IMG/VR virus record: IMGVR_UViG_3300011215_000019
Span: 62,001-89,486 of that record
DNA from: an uncultured virus (IMG/VR IMGVR_UViG_3300011215_000019)
Taxonomy: Duplodnaviria > Heunggongvirae > Uroviricota > Caudoviricetes
Strand: one strand, 5' to 3'
DNA: 27,486 nucleotides
Shown here: piece after piece, positions 1 to 12,232 of the stretch
Position numbering within the stretch: the first letter of the stretch is position 1
How the letters are laid out: each line of letters opens with the position of its first letter
The notes under the pieces: generated by a model
Database searches by the model: none
Seen by the model: only the letters and a program-made list of their open reading frames with translations
What the model was told of the DNA's origin: nothing
Position numbers and translations under genes: made by a program

Positions 1-1
1 C

Positions 2-139
2 GGCCTCGGAGCAATCGCTTACAGCATCGGAGCATCGTTCGAAAACCGGCAAAAGCACCAGCGCGAACAAAAAGCCCTAAAAGACATGCAAGCCGTAGTC
101 GATAGGCACGAAAAGTGGAGAAAGGAACGAGGACTATGA
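2..139 (+). CDS. 3' end of a small hypothetical phage gene (partial)
   Basis: Open frame GLGAIAYSIGASFENRQKHQREQKALKDMQAVVDRHEKWRKERGL*; its TGA (137-139) overlaps the next ATG (136) as ATGA. Confidence 0.6.
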   Translation, partial: GLGAIAYSIGASFENRQKHQREQKALKDMQAVVDRHEKWRKERGL

Positions 140-330
140 CCACCAGGAAATTGTGCGACTCAATCAGCACCCAAGGAACTTTCACCACCGCCGAACTACG
201 AGCGGTACTCGAAGGCAAACCAGACAACGCCAAAGTCAACATCGAGACATTTCGCGGCGACCCACGCGACCCCCGCGAGGCCGGATACAAGAAAACAGTT
301 ATCACCGTCGAATGGGAAGTGGAGATATGA
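136..330 (+). CDS. Hypothetical phage protein
   Basis: ATG 136 (MTTRKLCD...) after GAGG; ATGA overlaps at both ends. Confidence 0.7.
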   Translation: MTTRKLCDSISTQGTFTTAELRAVLEGKPDNAKVNIETFRGDPRDPREAGYKKTVITVEWEVEI

Positions 331-653
331 GCCAACGATTCACTGACGCAGAACTCGCCGCAGAGTTCTGGTTCGCAACAGGTGAATTCAACGCCGGAAC
401 CGAAGGACTAAACGCCGAATGGTTCGGAGGCGAAACCCGATTCACCCGCAACGACGAACTACGAGCACAAGCTCAAGTTGAAACCTTGAAACGCTTCGCC
501 ATGCTCCCACACGCGCAGGATGAACCGGGATCGCATGTCTTCCAATGCAAGAACTGTGCCGAACGCTGGGAAACAGACGACGAGAAAAGGTTGAACATTT
601 TCGCCCGAAACCACCAATACCTCGCGCACGACTACTGGAAGGAAAACCAGTGA
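327..653 (+). CDS. Hypothetical protein with C-terminal CxxC...HxxxxH zinc-finger-like motif
   Basis: Start re-called at ATG 327 (MSQRFTDAEL) from ATGA coupling and upstream GGAG; CKNC...HQYLAH. Confidence 0.7.
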   Translation: MSQRFTDAELAAEFWFATGEFNAGTEGLNAEWFGGETRFTRNDELRAQAQVETLKRFAMLPHAQDEPGSHVFQCKNCAERWETDDEKRLNIFARNHQYLAHDYWKENQ

Positions 654-781
654 TCCTCGCTATCGTCGGATGCCTCATCGCCACACTCGCCATCATCACC
701 GCACTACTCGCCATCGCCTGCGTCCAACCCGAACCCACCAAACCAAAACCTTGTGAAAACAAGTACAAGGACAAACCATGA
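650..781 (+). CDS. Small single-TM membrane protein
   Basis: GTGA overlap at 650-653; hydrophobic run ILAIVGCLIATLAIITALLAIAC followed by a basic tail. Confidence 0.6.
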   Translation: MILAIVGCLIATLAIITALLAIACVQPEPTKPKPCENKYKDKP

Positions 782-1119
782 ACCAACGCCGCGGAGGATG
801 CCCAACCACCGGCAAAGCAATGTTCTGGACCCGCGACCAAGCCAAACAATTCAAACGCCGCCACGAATACCGCAACCTCACCATATTCAAATGTGCTGAC
901 TGCGGATACTTCCACCTCGGCGGCAACCACGGCGAACAATCCAGACACGCACACCGCAACGGAATCGGCATGACACCAATCCCCGAAGCCGCACGAATGC
1001 TCGCCGTCTCCCAACAAGTCATCCGCCTCATCATCCAATCAGGCAAAGCACACGGAGACAGCGACAACATCCGAACCACAGACCTAACCCAACTACAAGA
1101 AGCGATGTACCGAACATGA
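778..1119 (+). CDS. Zinc-finger plus HTH (excisionase/MerR-like) DNA-binding protein
   Basis: C...K.F.T...A...FKCADCGYFHL, then IPEAARMLAVSQQVIRLIIQSGK HTH-like segment. Confidence 0.6.
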   Translation: MNQRRGGCPTTGKAMFWTRDQAKQFKRRHEYRNLTIFKCADCGYFHLGGNHGEQSRHAHRNGIGMTPIPEAARMLAVSQQVIRLIIQSGKAHGDSDNIRTTDLTQLQEAMYRT

Positions 1120-1316
1120 ACATCACCGCAAAAGAACTCTACGGAAAACCAGCGCGTGACTACAGGTCGCTATACGAAGCAGCAAAAGTGATCTTAGAAA
1201 TCCGCGAACACGAACTGATCCAAGCTTTAGGCCACTGCGACAACTCCAAGTGCAACCTGCATCGGAGACATGTTGGACAGTGCAACACCCCAATCACCAT
1301 CCAGGAGGGGCAGTGA
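1116..1316 (+). CDS. Hypothetical Cys/His-rich protein
   Basis: ATGA overlap; CDNSKCNLHRRHVGQC. Confidence 0.65.
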   Translation: MNITAKELYGKPARDYRSLYEAAKVILEIREHELIQALGHCDNSKCNLHRRHVGQCNTPITIQEGQ

Positions 1317-1549
1317 GCAAGACGCGCACCACAGCAGGCGAACTCATCGCCATGCTCAGCGAACTAGAACCAAACACACACGTCTACGTCGACATCGGCT
1401 CCCACGACTGGGAAGAATCAGACGCAATCGAACTCCGCACCACACAAGGGAGCGTCTACGGTAACAAGCGCAACGGCGACGTGCACCTCGCCGGACTAAC
1501 AGCCGAAGACGTGGAATGGCGCAACACCATCGAAGGAGAAGCGCTGTGA
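1313..1549 (+). CDS. Hypothetical phage protein
   Basis: GTG 1313 (VSKTRTTAGEL) with AGGAGG RBS and GTGA overlap. Confidence 0.7.
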   Translation: MSKTRTTAGELIAMLSELEPNTHVYVDIGSHDWEESDAIELRTTQGSVYGNKRNGDVHLAGLTAEDVEWRNTIEGEAL

Positions 1550-2133
1550 CCCTACGTTCTCTCGCGCAAGAACTATGCGAACCGCACCTAACCATGATCG
1601 GTGAACGCATCGGCAAAGTACCTGGACTCATCGCCGAACTCAGGGAAGCAGTTAGTGGGTCATCGGACACCGGAAGCGGTGGCAGCAGTTCCAAGGCACG
1701 CATCCTCGTAGACGCATCAGCCCTAGACCTACTCAACGACATCACCGACGAAGTCCGCATCGCCTACGCCAACCGATACCAAGATGCAGCACCAAACCTC
1801 GAACAATGCATCACCAAAATCAGTCAGGACACACACGAACCAGACTGGGAAACAACACTCGAAGGAATACTGAAATGGGCTAAGGATGAGATCGATACAT
1901 ACCTTCGCCCAAAGAAACTACGCAGACTCGACGGCGTAACCTGCCCCTCCTGCGGACAAGCAACCTACAGCGAAGACCGACTCACCGCACTCTACGTAGA
2001 CTGCTGGGCAGACAACGACAACCTCAAACCACACCAAGAATGGAGCGTCGAATGCAAAGCCTGTGAAACGCACTGGACAGGAACAAACGAAATCAAATGG
2101 GTACTAGTTGCACTGACCGCGAGCACCTGTTAA
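1546..2133 (+). CDS. Cys4 zinc-ribbon protein; putative late-gene regulator (by position)
   Basis: GTG 1546 with AAGGAG RBS; CPSC and CKAC motifs; last gene before the late promoter/terminator. Confidence 0.6.
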   Translation: MTLRSLAQELCEPHLTMIGERIGKVPGLIAELREAVSGSSDTGSGGSSSKARILVDASALDLLNDITDEVRIAYANRYQDAAPNLEQCITKISQDTHEPDWETTLEGILKWAKDEIDTYLRPKKLRRLDGVTCPSCGQATYSEDRLTALYVDCWADNDNLKPHQEWSVECKACETHWTGTNEIKWVLVALTASTC

Positions 2134-2136
2134 TCT
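2108..2136 (+). promoter_or_regulatory. Putative late promoter (SigA-type, extended -10)
   Basis: TTGCAC (2108-2113), 17 nt, TAATCT (2131-2136), with TG at 2128-2129. Confidence 0.55.
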
Positions 2137-2171
2137 GGTACCAGCTGCGGATACGTGTACCCACAGTCAGA

Positions 2172-2202
2172 AGCTTCAACCAAAAGGTTGGGGCTATTTT
2201 TT
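2172..2202 (+). terminator. Intrinsic terminator just downstream of the late promoter
   Basis: AGCTTCAACC-AAAA-GGTTGGGGCT followed by ATTTTTT. Confidence 0.65.
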
Positions 2203-2357
2203 ATGCCCTCGAACAGGGCAGACCCCCGGACGCTGGCCACCGGGCGAACAAGCCAGCACCCCCAGCGCAGACCTTCCCCCAATGAAGTGTGCGCAACAAG
2301 CCGTGCAGACCCTCGGTGGACACCGAGACTGCACGCAACGGTTCCTTGCGAGGAACC

Positions 2358-2430
2358 AGCGCTGTAGCTCAGCAGTAGAGCAGGTCTTCGAAAACGGACT
2401 TGGACGCAGGTGCAATTCCTGCCAGCGCAC
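2358..2430 (+). tRNA. Atypical or pseudo tRNA with 8-nt anticodon loop (identity ambiguous)
   Basis: Acceptor GCGCTG/CAGCGC, D-arm GCTC-AGCAGTA-GAGC, T-stem GCAGG/CCTGC; T-loop TGCAATT, A1:A72 mismatch, no CCA. Confidence 0.6.
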
Positions 2431-2509
2431 GACCGTCCGACCGGAACACGGAGGACGACCACACCCGCGAAGATAAAGCCGGAGACCTTGGGCCGGACGC
2501 AGCGGGCAA

Positions 2510-2585
2510 TGACCATTAGCTCAGCAGGCAGAGCACCTCACTGTTAATGAGGACGTCGCAGGTTCGAACCCTGCATGGTCAGCCA
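2510..2585 (+). tRNA. tRNA-Asn(GTT)
   Basis: Complete 76-nt cloverleaf: TGACCAT/ATGGTCA, CCTCA-CTGTTAA-TGAGG (anticodon 2543-2545), GCAGG-TTCGAAC-CCTGC, discriminator G, encoded CCA. Confidence 0.95.
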
Positions 2586-2700
2586 ACACAAAGACCCAAC
2601 AACCATTGGGGTTGAGGTGCAGCAACTGGACTACACCAACGCCGGGCCCCGGCAGACCGGACACTACCGGGGCCTAGCAATAAGCCCGTATGGTAAGGGT

Positions 2701-2856
2701 ATGAACAACACTCGCATCGACTTCTACAAGCCAAACCGGTACGTACTCACATGCAGATACTGTGGACAAATCAGTGAGAACACAGGCGACGATGACCTTC
2801 TCACTTACTTACAGCGCGACCACGAAGAGTCTTGCCCAGGTCCACAAGCACCATAG
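2701..2856 (+). CDS. Small zinc-finger-like protein (51 aa)
   Basis: ATG 2701; CRYC...HEESC. The longer ORF-track start (2575) lies inside the tRNA. Confidence 0.5.
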   Translation: MNNTRIDFYKPNRYVLTCRYCGQISENTGDDDLLTYLQRDHEESCPGPQAP

Positions 2857-2863
2857 AACAAGC

Positions 2864-2895
2864 AAAGCCCATCACCCTCACAGGTGGTGGGCTTT
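2864..2895 (+). terminator. Stem-loop, terminator-like
   Basis: AAAGCCCATCACC-CTCACA-GGTGGTGGGCTTT. Confidence 0.45.
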
Positions 2896-2918
2896 ACTCA
2901 TGCGCCAAGGCGGTGAAC

Positions 2919-3188
2919 ATGGCAACAGAGCGCAACAAGAACAACGCACAACGCTTCCGCAAAGTCATCGCCAAAACAAAAGCCAACTGCCACATCTGCG
3001 GCAAACCAATCGACTACACACTCCCACACCTAGACCCAGGCGCATTCGTAGTAGACCACATCAAACCCCTCAAACTAGGCGGCACCGACACACTCAACAA
3101 CACAGCCGCAGCACACCGCGAATGCAACTCCAAAAAACGAGCCCGAGCCTACGCACCAATCATCCGACGCTCCGGCTCACTCCAATAA
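2919..3188 (+). CDS. HNH endonuclease (terminase-associated)
   Basis: CHICG...VVDHIKP...GGTD.LNN...AHRECN; immediately upstream of terS, as in cos phages. Confidence 0.92.
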   Translation: MATERNKNNAQRFRKVIAKTKANCHICGKPIDYTLPHLDPGAFVVDHIKPLKLGGTDTLNNTAAAHRECNSKKRARAYAPIIRRSGSLQ

Positions 3189-3300
3189 ACACCACGGGGG
3201 GCACCCCCTACAGCCCAGCCCCCAAGCCCTCCGGGGTCAGGAAGAATCTCTCCCCGACATTTTTTCCACCAACGCTTTTTCAGAATCGAGGTGTTTCGTT
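3189..3300. other. Probable cos (cohesive end/packaging) region; candidate overhang near 3228-3238 (CCTCCGGGGTC)
   Basis: Intergenic between HNH and terS; GGGGGGCACCCCC palindrome, G/C runs and T-tracts; strand composition flips here. The exact overhang is inference. Confidence 0.55.
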
Positions 3301-3600
3301 ATGGCTGATCGACCTTCTTTGAGGGCGGTTTCTGATGGCGAGAAGCCATCGAAGCCGGCGAAGACGTTGACGGTTTCTGAAGCGGCTAAGGGTGGTTCGG
3401 CTCGTGATCTGCTGGTTGCTACTCGTGACCGTATTGCCTTAGCTGTTGAGAATGAATCGACTCCTGCCCGTGATCTCGCTGCTTTGACGAAGCGGTTGAT
3501 GGAGACGGTTCGGGAGATTGAGGCGATTGATGCACGGGCCTTGGAAGAGGGGTCTAGTGAAGAAGTCACCGACGGGGAGTTCGACGCAGAAGCGGTCTGA
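3301..3600 (+). CDS. Terminase small subunit
   Basis: GAGG RBS; helical ARDLAALTKRLMET motif typical of actinophage TerS; directly upstream of TerL. Confidence 0.8.
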   Translation: MADRPSLRAVSDGEKPSKPAKTLTVSEAAKGGSARDLLVATRDRIALAVENESTPARDLAALTKRLMETVREIEAIDARALEEGSSEEVTDGEFDAEAV

Positions 3601-5053
3601 TGCTCCGAAGTTGTCTGAGGTTGCGCGTGAGTTGGTGATCCCGAAGGGGATTGTGACTACGGCGTGGCCGCGGGTTGTTGCGAAGTGCGCTGAGATGGGC
3701 GTGAAGTTCGATTCGTGGCAGCACGGTATCGGCATGGTTGCTTTGGGTAAGCGCAAGGATGGGAAGTACGCGGCCACTGTGGGTGGCGTGGTGCTTTCGA
3801 TTCCGCGGCAGGTCGGCAAGACGTTCCTGGTCGGCATGATCATCATTGCGTTGTGTGTGATTCACCCGAATTTCAAGGTGTTGTGGACTGCGCACCGTAC
3901 CCGTACTGCGTCGATGACTTTCACTTCTTTGCAGGGCATGGTCCGTAAGAAGAAGATTTGGCCTCATGTGCTGGCGATTCGTACGTCGAATGGTGAGCAG
4001 GAGATCCGTTTCCGTAATGGTTCGGTCATCATGTTTGGTGCTCGCGAGCAGGGCTTTGGTCGTGGTTTCGATCAGGTCGATATTGAAGTTTTTGATGAGG
4101 CGCAGATCCTCACGGAGAAGGCGCTGGAAGATATGGTGCCGGCTGCGAACGCTTCGAAGCATGAGGCCGGTGCGTTGCTGTTCTTCATGGGCACGCCGCC
4201 TCGCCCGTCGGATCCTGGTGAGGAATTCAGCAATCGTCGGGCTAAGGCGAAGTCTGGCAAGTCTACGGACATGGTGTACGTGGAGTTGTCGGCTGATGAT
4301 GATGCTGATCCTGATGATCTTGAGCAGGTTTCTAAGGCTAATCCGTCGTTTCCTCATCGGACGCCGGTTGAGTCGATTCTGCGTATGCGGGAGAACTTGA
4401 CTGATGATGATTCGTTCAAGCGTGAAGCTTTGGGCATTTGGGATGCTGAGGATTCTTCACGGGTTATCGATGAGATCTCGTGGAACCGTGCTGCTGATCC
4501 TGCGTCGATGGCTATTGAGCGGTTGACGATTGCCCTCGATGTTCCTCCTAGCCGTTCTAACGCGTCTGTGTCGCTGTCTGGGCAACGTCCTGACGGGCGT
4601 TGGCATGTGGAGCTTGATGACACTCGTAAGGGCGTTGATTGGGTGATCCCGTGGGTGAAGTCCCGTGCGGAGAAGAACCGTTTGCATGCGGTCGTTGCCG
4701 ATGAGATGTGCGGCCTTGTGGAGGAACGCAAGGGTAAGCATTATCTGATCGGCACAGACATTGTCGTGACTTTGGCCGCGGCGGAAGGGCGTGACATGTC
4801 GATTGCGTGCGCGAAGTATTACGACTGCATTGTGGATGGGTCGCTGTTCCATGTTGATCAGCCGCAGGTTAATACGGCGTTGTCGGTGGCGACGAAGCGT
4901 CCTCTGGCTGGTGGTTGGGCGTGGAACCGTAAGGATGCCGCGTCGGACATCACGCCGATTGTTTCTCAGACTCTTGCCCTGTGGGGCGCTCAAAATGACA
5001 ACGTGAATCGTCCTCAGCGGCGTTCTGGCGGCAGGAAGGCTGTGGTGCTTTGA
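3518..5053 (+). CDS. Terminase large subunit (start uncertain: 3518, 3530 or 3611)
   Basis: Walker A IPRQVGKT, Walker B VFDEAQ, MGTPP coupling motif, C-terminal nuclease acidic residues (ALDV, DITP). Confidence 0.95.
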   Translation: MRRLMHGPWKRGLVKKSPTGSSTQKRSDAPKLSEVARELVIPKGIVTTAWPRVVAKCAEMGVKFDSWQHGIGMVALGKRKDGKYAATVGGVVLSIPRQVGKTFLVGMIIIALCVIHPNFKVLWTAHRTRTASMTFTSLQGMVRKKKIWPHVLAIRTSNGEQEIRFRNGSVIMFGAREQGFGRGFDQVDIEVFDEAQILTEKALEDMVPAANASKHEAGALLFFMGTPPRPSDPGEEFSNRRAKAKSGKSTDMVYVELSADDDADPDDLEQVSKANPSFPHRTPVESILRMRENLTDDDSFKREALGIWDAEDSSRVIDEISWNRAADPASMAIERLTIALDVPPSRSNASVSLSGQRPDGRWHVELDDTRKGVDWVIPWVKSRAEKNRLHAVVADEMCGLVEERKGKHYLIGTDIVVTLAAAEGRDMSIACAKYYDCIVDGSLFHVDQPQVNTALSVATKRPLAGGWAWNRKDAASDITPIVSQTLALWGAQNDNVNRPQRRSGGRKAVVL

Positions 5054-11066: not shown

Positions 11067-11576
11067 ATGGCCGAGATTCGTTCTACCCCTTATGACGGCA
11101 ACGTAAAGGCCGTCCTTGTCCCTGCTATCGCTGACGTGAAGAACCCTACGGTTGCTGAGCTGACCGGCGCAGGTGTCATCGACATTTCCTGCTACCTGAC
11201 CGGCGATGGCCTGGCCATTTCGGTGGATCAGCAGACCGTTTCGGATGAGCGTCTGTGCTCGACTTCGACGTTCGAGAAGCGTGGCCGCAAGACTCACTCG
11301 GTCGATGTGACCTACATCGACAACACGAACTCGGTGGCGAACGCTGACCAGAACGAAGCACGTGAAGCGCTCGAAGAGGGCTCGCACCATTACTTGGTGA
11401 CTCGTCGCAACGTGGCGTATGAGACCGCGATTGCTGCGGCTCAGAAGGTGCGCGTGTACCCGGTGGAGGCTGGTTTCCCGGCTGAGGTTCCGGGCGAGGC
11501 GAACTCGGTGACTCGTTCGACTTCGAAGCTGTTCGTTGAGGCTGAGCCTGGCATCGACGTGGCTGTTACTGCCTGA
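11067..11576 (+). CDS. Major tail (tube) protein
   Basis: PTVAELT...DISCYLT...DERLC motif typical of actinophage tail tube proteins. Confidence 0.9.
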   Translation: MAEIRSTPYDGNVKAVLVPAIADVKNPTVAELTGAGVIDISCYLTGDGLAISVDQQTVSDERLCSTSTFEKRGRKTHSVDVTYIDNTNSVANADQNEAREALEEGSHHYLVTRRNVAYETAIAAAQKVRVYPVEAGFPAEVPGEANSVTRSTSKLFVEAEPGIDVAVTA

Positions 11577-11677: not shown

Positions 11678-12232
11678 TTGGCTGAGAAGAAGAAGTTTGA
11701 GTTCAAGCGTCCGACTCGTTTGGTGCGTGTTTGCACTGACGGTGAGCTGGTGTCGGAGTACGAGGCTGTTCAGGCTGAGCTTGACGAAAAGCGTCGTGCG
11801 GCGATTGTTGACCGTCGTTTGAATCCTCCTGTCAAGGAGTTGGAGATCCGTTCTGCTGAGCTGTACAAGGCGCAGGAGGATTCCACCATTGTGTTCAAGC
11901 TCAGTGCCTTGCCTCGCAAGACTTGGGATGAGCTCAAGACGAAGAACCCTCCACGTGATGACAACGAATCTGACGAAAACCTCGGCTACAACGTGGACAC
12001 CTGCCTGGATGCTGCGATGGGTACCGAGGGTACCATCCTTGAGGTCACGCAGGACGGTGAGCCAATCGAGTTCACTACTGAGGACTGGAAGGTGTTGTCG
12101 CCTGAGCTGACCGATGGTCAGTGGACCGAGTTCCAGCTGGCTCTTAGCGGGCTGAATGGTGGTCGGCCGAAGGTCCCTTTTTCGCAGAGCGGATACAAGC
12201 TGATGCAGGATTCCGCCGAGAAGTCGAAGTAG
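11678..12232 (+). CDS. Tail assembly chaperone (gpG-like)
   Basis: AGGAG RBS and TTG start; lies between the tail tube and tape measure genes. Confidence 0.85.
   Translation: MAEKKKFEFKRPTRLVRVCTDGELVSEYEAVQAELDEKRRAAIVDRRLNPPVKELEIRSAELYKAQEDSTIVFKLSALPRKTWDELKTKNPPRDDNESDENLGYNVDTCLDAAMGTEGTILEVTQDGEPIEFTTEDWKVLSPELTDGQWTEFQLALSGLNGGRPKVPFSQSGYKLMQDSAEKSK

Follow-up and report, generated by a model that had tools for sequence, protein, structure and literature searches.

The stretch of DNA analysed here, called the window below, is the last 27.5 kb (27,486 nucleotides, nt) of an 89,486-base provirus record of an uncultured virus (IMG/VR IMGVR_UViG_3300011215_000019). The record consists of two tandem prophages with a tyrosine integrase at the end of each. 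Near the beginning of the window, a non-coding span of 567 nt (2134-2700) separates a gene for a DUF7341 protein from a block made up of a small open reading frame (ORF), an HNH endonuclease gene and the terminase genes (Table 1). The span contains an intrinsic terminator, a series of hairpins, a canonical tRNA-Asn(GTT) gene and an aberrant tRNA-like gene. A preliminary description had taken 2204-2700 as a single, undescribed structured RNA of about 500 nt enclosing two tRNA genes. The region is indeed non-coding, but its real extent is 2134-2700, the terminator that opens it having been overlooked. None of the five ORFs in or overlapping the gap has a Pfam match at E<=1, and several of them overlap the tRNA genes, so that the earlier statement that no convincing coding sequence lies here holds; all the hairpins named there are found in the sequence where they had been placed. 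We propose, with a probability of about 0.65, that 2134-2700 is an intergenic slot for exchangeable tRNA cassettes in a temperate siphovirus-type prophage of a Micrococcales-like host, and not one large RNA. The slot is situated between the terminator ending the early/right-arm genes and the small-ORF/HNH/terminase block.

Table 1. Features of the slot and of its flanking genes (positions in the window)
Feature	Position	Strand	Details
DUF7341 protein, 205 aa	1516-2133	+	early/right-arm gene just 5' of the gap
Conserved non-coding block	2139-2171	+	3' of the DUF7341 gene stop
Intrinsic terminator	2172-2202	+	10-pair stem 2172-2195, 4-nt loop, T-run tail ATTTTTTATG; terminator scan
Hairpin H1	2204-2209/2215-2220	+	TGCCCT/AGGGCA
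Weak alternative pairings	2231-2267	+	CGCTGG/CCAGCG 2231-2236/2262-2267, or GCTGGC/GCCAGC 2232-2237/2252-2257
Hairpin H3	2265-2294	+	outer stem GCGCA 2265-2269 / TGCGC 2290-2294
Strong hairpin H4	2302-2335	+	CGTGCAG..CTCGGT/ACCGAG..CTGCACG
Hairpin H5	2340-2346/2351-2357	+	GGTTCCT/AGGAACC; adjoins the tRNA-like gene
Aberrant tRNA-like gene	2358-2430	+	Rfam tRNA 42 bits (gathering score 29); RNAfold cloverleaf
Spacer with two hairpins	2431-2509	+	hairpins 2434-2457 and 2464-2506
Spacer stems	2434-2438/2453-2457; 2464-2468/2502-2506	+	CGTCC/GGACG; CCCGC/GCGGG
tRNA-Asn(GTT), canonical	2510-2585	+	ARAGORN; Rfam 66.4 bits; CCA encoded
Trailer module	2588-2700	+	hairpins 2593-2610 and 2611-2626, long hairpin Ht2, TAGCAAT, then ribosome binding site (RBS) AAGGG
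Trailer stem	2593-2597/2606-2610	+	CCCAA/TTGGG
Trailer hairpin Ht2	2644-2652/2667-2675	+	holds GGCCCCGG/CCGGGGCC; loop ACCGGACA at 2656-2663
51-aa ORF	2701-2856	+	first gene past the slot; CxxC...HxxxC pattern
HNH endonuclease	2919-3188	+	Pfam HNH 6.7e-12
Terminase small subunit	3301-3600	+	PHROG 3.7e-27; Pitbull annotation
Terminase large subunit	3518-5053	+	followed by virion genes; Pitbull annotation

The evidence for exchange comes from the closest relative, L002, whose flanking proteins are 85-95% identical, one of them 92%, to those of the window, from contigs of four public DNA runs (X1-X4) compared over 1500-3600, and from a short metagenome contig, L048. L002 keeps the terminator, H1, H3 and the trailer, while its interior is replaced by a tRNA of unassigned type (tRNA-???, with a 6-nt loop), tRNA-Ser(TGA) and tRNA-Ser(GCT); H4 and H5 are absent. 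The X1 and X2 contigs match the window over 1500-2261 with 2-3 differences, then have 333 letters of different sequence where 2262-2587 would be expected, and match again over 2588-2616, which sets the cassette breakpoints at 2261/2262 on the left and 2587/2588 on the right. An X3 contig matches 2245-2382 and then diverges after the D-arm, inside the tRNA-like gene, and an X4 contig matches 2289-2364 with 3 differences before it diverges. H4 is present in both of these contigs, whose further sequence differs from the window. At the end of an X3 contig, H3 is immediately followed by a different tRNA 5' end, and in L002 too a tRNA comes right after H3. In L048 the terminator is the same, and a tRNA-like gene there combines the acceptor stem of the window's odd gene with a long internal insert. 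The stretch is therefore a patchwork of modules, whose breakpoints fall at the borders of tRNAs and within conserved tRNA segments. The boundary hairpins H1, H3 and Ht2 appear to stay while the cassette changes, and H4, H5 and the spacer hairpins appear to travel with or next to the tRNAs.

The upstream boundary is conserved. Positions 2139-2209 are 85.9% identical to L002, and the terminator recurs in L002 and L048 with a near-identical stem plus T-run and a different loop. The core TGCC/GGCA stem of H1 is likewise kept in both with different loops, no compensatory change being seen in it among the window, L002 and L048. Homologues of the flanks are few: a search with the DUF7341 protein returned one viral locus and no genome locus, the exact terminator/H1 pattern returned the same single IMG/VR contig and nothing in genomes, and a metagenome scan yielded one short contig, L048.

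The hairpins might alternatively act as DNA, in the manner of a folded attC, as recombination or cassette-boundary sites driving the exchange of tRNA modules. The breakpoints (2261/2262, 2364, 2382 and 2587/2588) adjoin hairpins and tRNA ends, and hairpin modules stand ahead of different tRNAs in different phages. Yet the slot has no dedicated recombinase next to it, its hairpins have no further copies in the 89-kb record, and ordinary homologous or illegitimate recombination explains breakpoints in conserved tRNA segments; we regard such a role as very unlikely.

Folding energies were compared with those of 200 dinucleotide shuffles and expressed as z. The leader (2196-2357) reaches -3.84 with none of the 200 shuffles as good (-3.77 in a rerun) and the trailer -3.42 with 1/200 as good (-3.01 in a rerun), while the spacer, at -1.94 with 10/200 as good (-2.29 in a rerun), is not clearly above chance. 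Among 40 random 150-nt windows of late coding sequence the mean was -0.44 (standard deviation 1.33; 3/40 below -3), and among 25 windows of the early region it was -0.07. Of the two weak pairings at 2231-2267, RNAfold favours GCTGGC/GCCAGC over CGCTGG/CCAGCG. The whole of 2196-2702 has a z of -3.98, and a phage-borne, tRNA-associated structure of this kind recalls GOLLD and ROOL, so that the whole of some 500 nt could be imagined as a new class of large structured non-coding RNA with the tRNAs embedded in it. A search against Rfam, however, gave only the two tRNA hits in the window at gathering score, and at E<=10 only weak, chance-level matches beyond tRNA in 1900-3000. The long-range pairs predicted for the whole region are absent from the centroid structure, the leader of L002 has a z of -0.18, and the interior is replaced wholesale in near-identical relatives and interrupted in the X3 and X4 contigs. 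The single-RNA claim of the preliminary description, with its comparison to GOLLD and ROOL, is largely refuted by this mosaicism, and we give it hardly any credence.

The heptamer GCAGACC occurs four times on the plus strand within 2218-2658 (440 nt), out of eight copies in the window. Its placement relative to the hairpins varies, its count over the whole window does not exceed that of shuffles, and L002 has one related copy, CCAGACC; the clustering may come from composition bias or module duplication. The shorter CAGACC was considered as a motif upstream of HNH in relatives, where it is found at 1.05 versus 0.25 per kb, but it was treated as composition because its contexts are unrelated coding sequences in A/C-rich early regions.

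By the terms of the preliminary description, homologues lacking conserved or covarying structure would speak against it, and this is only partly what is seen. Compensatory changes are found in H3 and Ht2, but in only two or three homologues, and the unit as a whole is neither inherited together nor covarying. The outer stem of H3 is GCGCA/TGCGC in the window, GCCCA/TGGGC in L002 and AGCCA/TGGCT in L048, so that by inspection three of its five pairs are changed on both sides across the three sequences; the conserved string CAGACC spans the point where the 5' arm passes into the loop (arm-final CA plus GACC). The trailer has 80% column identity with L002. In Ht2, six of the nine pairs are changed on both sides between the two sequences while the 8-nt loop ACCGGACA is invariant, and in the small trailer hairpin (2611-2614/2623-2626) one of four pairs shows a compensatory change. 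The evidence for covariation of H3 and Ht2 is real but thin, as it comes from two or three genomes only.

These changes bring in another explanation, according to which the boundary hairpins, chiefly the trailer at 2611-2675 with its loop ACCGGACA, would be a cis-acting regulatory RNA of the nut/put kind belonging to the late/packaging operon, with the tRNAs as passengers in its leader. Such an element would bind a protein or modify RNA polymerase, and so allow transcription to continue through hairpins further downstream. The compensated Ht2 stem with its invariant loop and conserved flanks speaks for it, as does the position of the trailer element, which ends 25 nt before the RBS belonging to the first gene past the slot. 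A strong 13-pair hairpin followed by TTTACT, conserved in L002, lies further on at 2865-2896, between the 51-aa ORF and the HNH gene, and Arthrobacter phage Pitbull too has a terminator and then a structured gap before the genes leading to HNH. On the other hand, the Ht2 comparison involves two sequences only. A covariance model built from the trailer alone (R1; two training sequences) found only its own training sequences in 56 related loci and nothing credible in 150 further loci (70 and 80, gathered by a loose 16-base pattern and nearly all chance matches). Since the loci searched include 40-odd relatives with the same HNH/terminase block, the trailer element is not a general feature of this operon. 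The promoter scan gave no promoter-like site, and no partner protein was identified. A cis-acting role is therefore unlikely in our estimate, and the analogy with put-type antitermination is a possibility for the trailer only. The hairpin at 2865-2896 may itself serve the packaging operon as an internal terminator or as a site of processing.

As for the two tRNA genes of the preliminary description, one is an ordinary tRNA; the other is non-canonical, even though Rfam scores it as tRNA. The tRNA-Asn has a regular cloverleaf with a 7-nt anticodon loop, U33 and conserved D- and T-loops. It fits demand: in the adjacent early-right genes AAC ranks third among the codons by frequency, at 48 per 1000, against 25 per 1000 in late genes. 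At 2358-2430 ARAGORN calls no tRNA. An anticodon stem of 5 pairs can be formed in only one way (2383-2387/2396-2400), and the loop that it leaves, TCGAAAAC (2388-2395), has 8 nt in place of the canonical 7 with U33 and purine 37. The acceptor stem has six of seven pairs intact and an A1xA72 mismatch, flagged as non-canonical in the Rfam alignment; the D-loop, AGCAGTA, is without GG, the T-loop, TGCAATT, has G55, and CCA is not encoded, unlike in the neighbouring tRNA-Asn. The two genes share the D-arm and the T-stem, both at 152-nt spacing. The 8-nt loop includes GAA, the Phe anticodon triplet, and CGA, a Ser triplet. By textbook rules the short variable region of this gene makes Ser identity unlikely. 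Its anticodon arm has no exact match in IMG/VR, its T-arm pattern has one there, in an unrelated low-GC contig, and blastn against the phage collection gave generic tRNA similarity only. In that low-GC viral contig (L005, IMGVR_UViG_3300012956_000008, about 1385-1530), the identical 21-nt T-arm is closed by an acceptor-like helix of 8-9 bp around an insert of about 100 nt, and no program calls a tRNA. The odd gene at 2358-2430 is best described as a degenerate or specialised paralogue beside one working tRNA-Asn.

The specialised alternative would make it a functional tRNA of special purpose, either a +1 frameshifting or otherwise unusual decoder, or a decoy or inhibitor that does not decode but binds tRNA-targeting nucleases of the host or tRNA enzymes. 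The cloverleaf and most of the acceptor stem are intact, the Rfam score is above gathering, and the loop has the extra nucleotide characteristic of +1 frameshift-suppressor or quadruplet-decoding tRNAs. Natural functional tRNAs with 8-nt loops and +1 frameshifting tRNAs are described in PMC3113583 and in a preprint on SufB2, and phage tRNAs with altered anticodon loops are proposed in PMC10264068 to evade anticodon nucleases. Atypical tRNA-like genes moreover recur in the slot of other phages, one type in seven records with compensatory changes. Against a special tRNA stands the joint failure of the 1-72 pair, G19/C56, position 55, the placement of U33 and CCA, together with the lack of a second copy in IMG/VR or the phage collection and the divergence of the X3 contig in the middle of the gene. 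The ORF list of the window, although not searched systematically for them, showed no +1-split genes, and the only frameshift-type gene pair noticed (11067-11576 / 11678-12232) has the usual -1 relation. We consider a functional special-purpose tRNA unlikely.

Of 23 viral loci that reach a full 4 kb beyond the terminase on its upstream side, 7 have genes of tRNA or tRNA-like type there, and so have 2 of 7 genome loci, Rfam not having been run on L040 and L047. Their isotypes include Trp(CCA), Leu(CAA), Ser(CGA, GCT, TGA) and Asn. Six of the 16 slot genes are atypical, being missed by ARAGORN or reported as '???'. One atypical tRNA is identical at 73 of 74 positions between L006 (1377-1450) and L055 (897-970), with unalignable upstream flanks. 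The same type is present in seven phage/prophage records (also L250-L256) with unrelated flanks, is missed by ARAGORN and scores about 34 bits with Rfam. It shows compensatory changes in the acceptor stem (one pair), in the T-stem (two pairs) and in a 3-bp D-stem; the invariance of its anticodon arm is by construction, because the search pattern fixed that arm. In the right register it has a normal CT-GTA-AA loop, with a Tyr anticodon, and a short variable region, while bacterial tRNA-Tyr has a long variable arm as a rule. Its near identity could come from recent module transfer. Further tRNA-like sequences of slots (L002:3780-3851, L009:1750-1856, L032:2537-2621 and the last ~110 nt of L048, minus strand) have a 6-nt anticodon loop, or insertions of 30-55 nt replacing the anticodon arm. 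Among flank segments of slot tRNAs in relatives, 8 of 23 have z <= -2.3. Pitbull (L004, PQ184828.1) has an unannotated gap of 439 nt at 3286-3725, with a terminator-like hairpin followed by TTATTGCCCT and a fold z of -2.5. This gap holds a truncated tRNA-like remnant, the T-arm of which has 19 of 20 bases in common with that of the window's tRNA-like gene.

Under the proposed reading as a slot for exchangeable cassettes, the span would belong to the late packaging transcript or be transcribed shortly before it, and RNase P plus 3' processing would free the tRNA or tRNAs. Stable hairpins would punctuate this processing and shield from exonucleases the flanks set free by it, among them the 5' end of the mRNA that follows; for the spacer hairpins, a role in the processing or stability of RNA is probable. 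Cassettes would be shuffled, and aberrant tRNA-like genes left behind, by recombination at the borders of modules and in conserved tRNA segments. The other suggestion of the preliminary description, that tRNA maturation releases a series of small RNAs, is compatible with these observations. Of the public runs listed as containing 1500-3600, none is registered as an RNA run. Several points weigh against the proposed reading. The folds of leader and trailer are much stronger than those of shuffles and of most coding windows, and strong folds combined with compensatory changes and an invariant loop argue for a specific function beyond that of passive spacers. Dense structure, tried as a constant of the slot, was rejected on the z of the L002 leader and is thus not a constant property of it. 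The roles in promoter activity, processing and stability are all inferred, the flank homologues number two or three only, and R1 has no further copies in 206 loci. Where phages have identical modules, recent transfer and not selection may be the cause.

A bolder combination can also be formulated, in which the slot would be the 5' leader of the packaging/late operon, H3 with its CAGACC and Ht2 with its ACCGGACA would form a new nut/put-type cis element, and the aberrant tRNA-like genes, with their 8-nt or 6-nt loops or expanded arms, would be non-decoding mimics engaging host tRNA defences or enzymes and not products of decay. We hold this combination to be improbable.

With regard to the genomic setting, the host is probably a Micrococcales actinobacterium, since the relatives of the terminase are prophages of Paenarthrobacter, Microbacterium and Mycetocola. 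Pitbull has about 75% DNA identity with the window from the terminase to the scaffold, and its genome start coincides with the point at which composition flips in the window (3200-3300). The sense strand of the early/right arm (window 1-3200) is strongly richer in A than T and in C than G, with AT skew up to +0.5 and GC skew down to -0.4; the skew reverses sharply near 3200-3300, with the direction of transcription unchanged. Codon choice tracks the skew, with A/C-ending codons in early genes and G/T-ending codons in late genes; AAT, for instance, is used at 2.7 per 1000 in early and 14.7 per 1000 in late genes. In the other prophage of the record, the early strand of that prophage has the same skew (record G000, 28-46 kb and 50-64 kb). 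The 51-aa ORF at 2701-2856 has no Pfam match above cut-off. A small ORF of about 50 aa lies at the matching position in L002 (4382-4534), and both have a CxxCG...D(R)H..(S)C pattern, although tblastn at 1e-3 gave no link between the two. They may represent a small zinc-finger protein family specific to the slot.

The feature is thus of an ordinary kind, a phage tRNA cassette region, seen in unusual detail. Hairpins crowded around phage tRNAs do not necessarily form a single RNA; in this case they come apart into a terminator, conserved boundary hairpins and freely exchanged tRNA modules. The slot offers a delimited example of tRNA cassette turnover at a fixed site in temperate Micrococcales phages, with breakpoints placed to within a few bases. 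About a third of the tRNA-like genes in the slots studied escape the usual tRNA finders. Should the atypical ones be functional, surveys of phage tRNAs count too few members of a class that bears on the current debate over tRNA-based defence and counter-defence. As a candidate regulatory element, the trailer hairpin is small and cleanly testable.

Among known systems, GOLLD and ROOL are likewise phage-borne and adjacent to tRNAs, whereas the slot has no Rfam match, is not inherited as a unit, and owes much of its length to tRNA and replaceable modules. HK022 put and lambda nut are antitermination RNAs, paired leader hairpins upstream of genes that lie behind hairpin-type terminators. The slot resembles them in its paired leader hairpins and in having a conserved loop on a variable stem, and differs in the lack of sequence or Rfam similarity; its candidate element is found in only two genomes.

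Phage tRNAs have been discussed as a counter to host defences that target tRNA (PMC10264068, PMC11555353). The similarity lies in phage-borne tRNAs with an altered anticodon loop in actinobacterial phages; the tRNAs described there are canonical and decodable and carry point changes, whereas the window's gene has an 8-nt loop and a broken elbow and acceptor as well. A temperate actinobacteriophage with a tRNA gene and a tyrosine integrase also calls to mind tRNA-dependent lysogeny, as outlined in PMC10865867. The present record ends at the integrase start, attL and attR of the prophage of interest lying outside it, and what the record covers gives no support for such lysogeny in this prophage. 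Between the tandem prophages (G000:C1, about 47,480-47,540, minus strand) lies the T-arm and 3' acceptor strand of a tRNA-like sequence, probably an att-site remnant, which by eye resembles neither the tRNA-Asn nor the odd tRNA. Anticodon loops of 8 nt are known from SufB2 and other +1 frameshift suppressors and from the tRNA-Thr of yeast mitochondria. The 5-pair anticodon stem closing an 8-nt loop is shared with these, which have a canonical body and are charged, whereas the window's gene is without the 1-72 pair, the D/T-loop partners and a standard U33. A limited search of open-access text found no phage tRNA with an 8-nt loop.

The closest likeness in kind is to phage tRNA clusters, classically the T4 tRNA region, in which small stable RNAs are processed together with the tRNAs, and also to the tRNA genes of actinobacteriophages. 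As in such clusters, the tRNAs of the slot lie in a non-coding stretch, their content varies among relatives, the isotype fits a heavily used codon (AAC), and they are probably co-transcribed and processed. The slot differs in holding one canonical tRNA, in its strong flanking hairpins and covarying boundary hairpins, and in its place directly before the HNH/terminase block.

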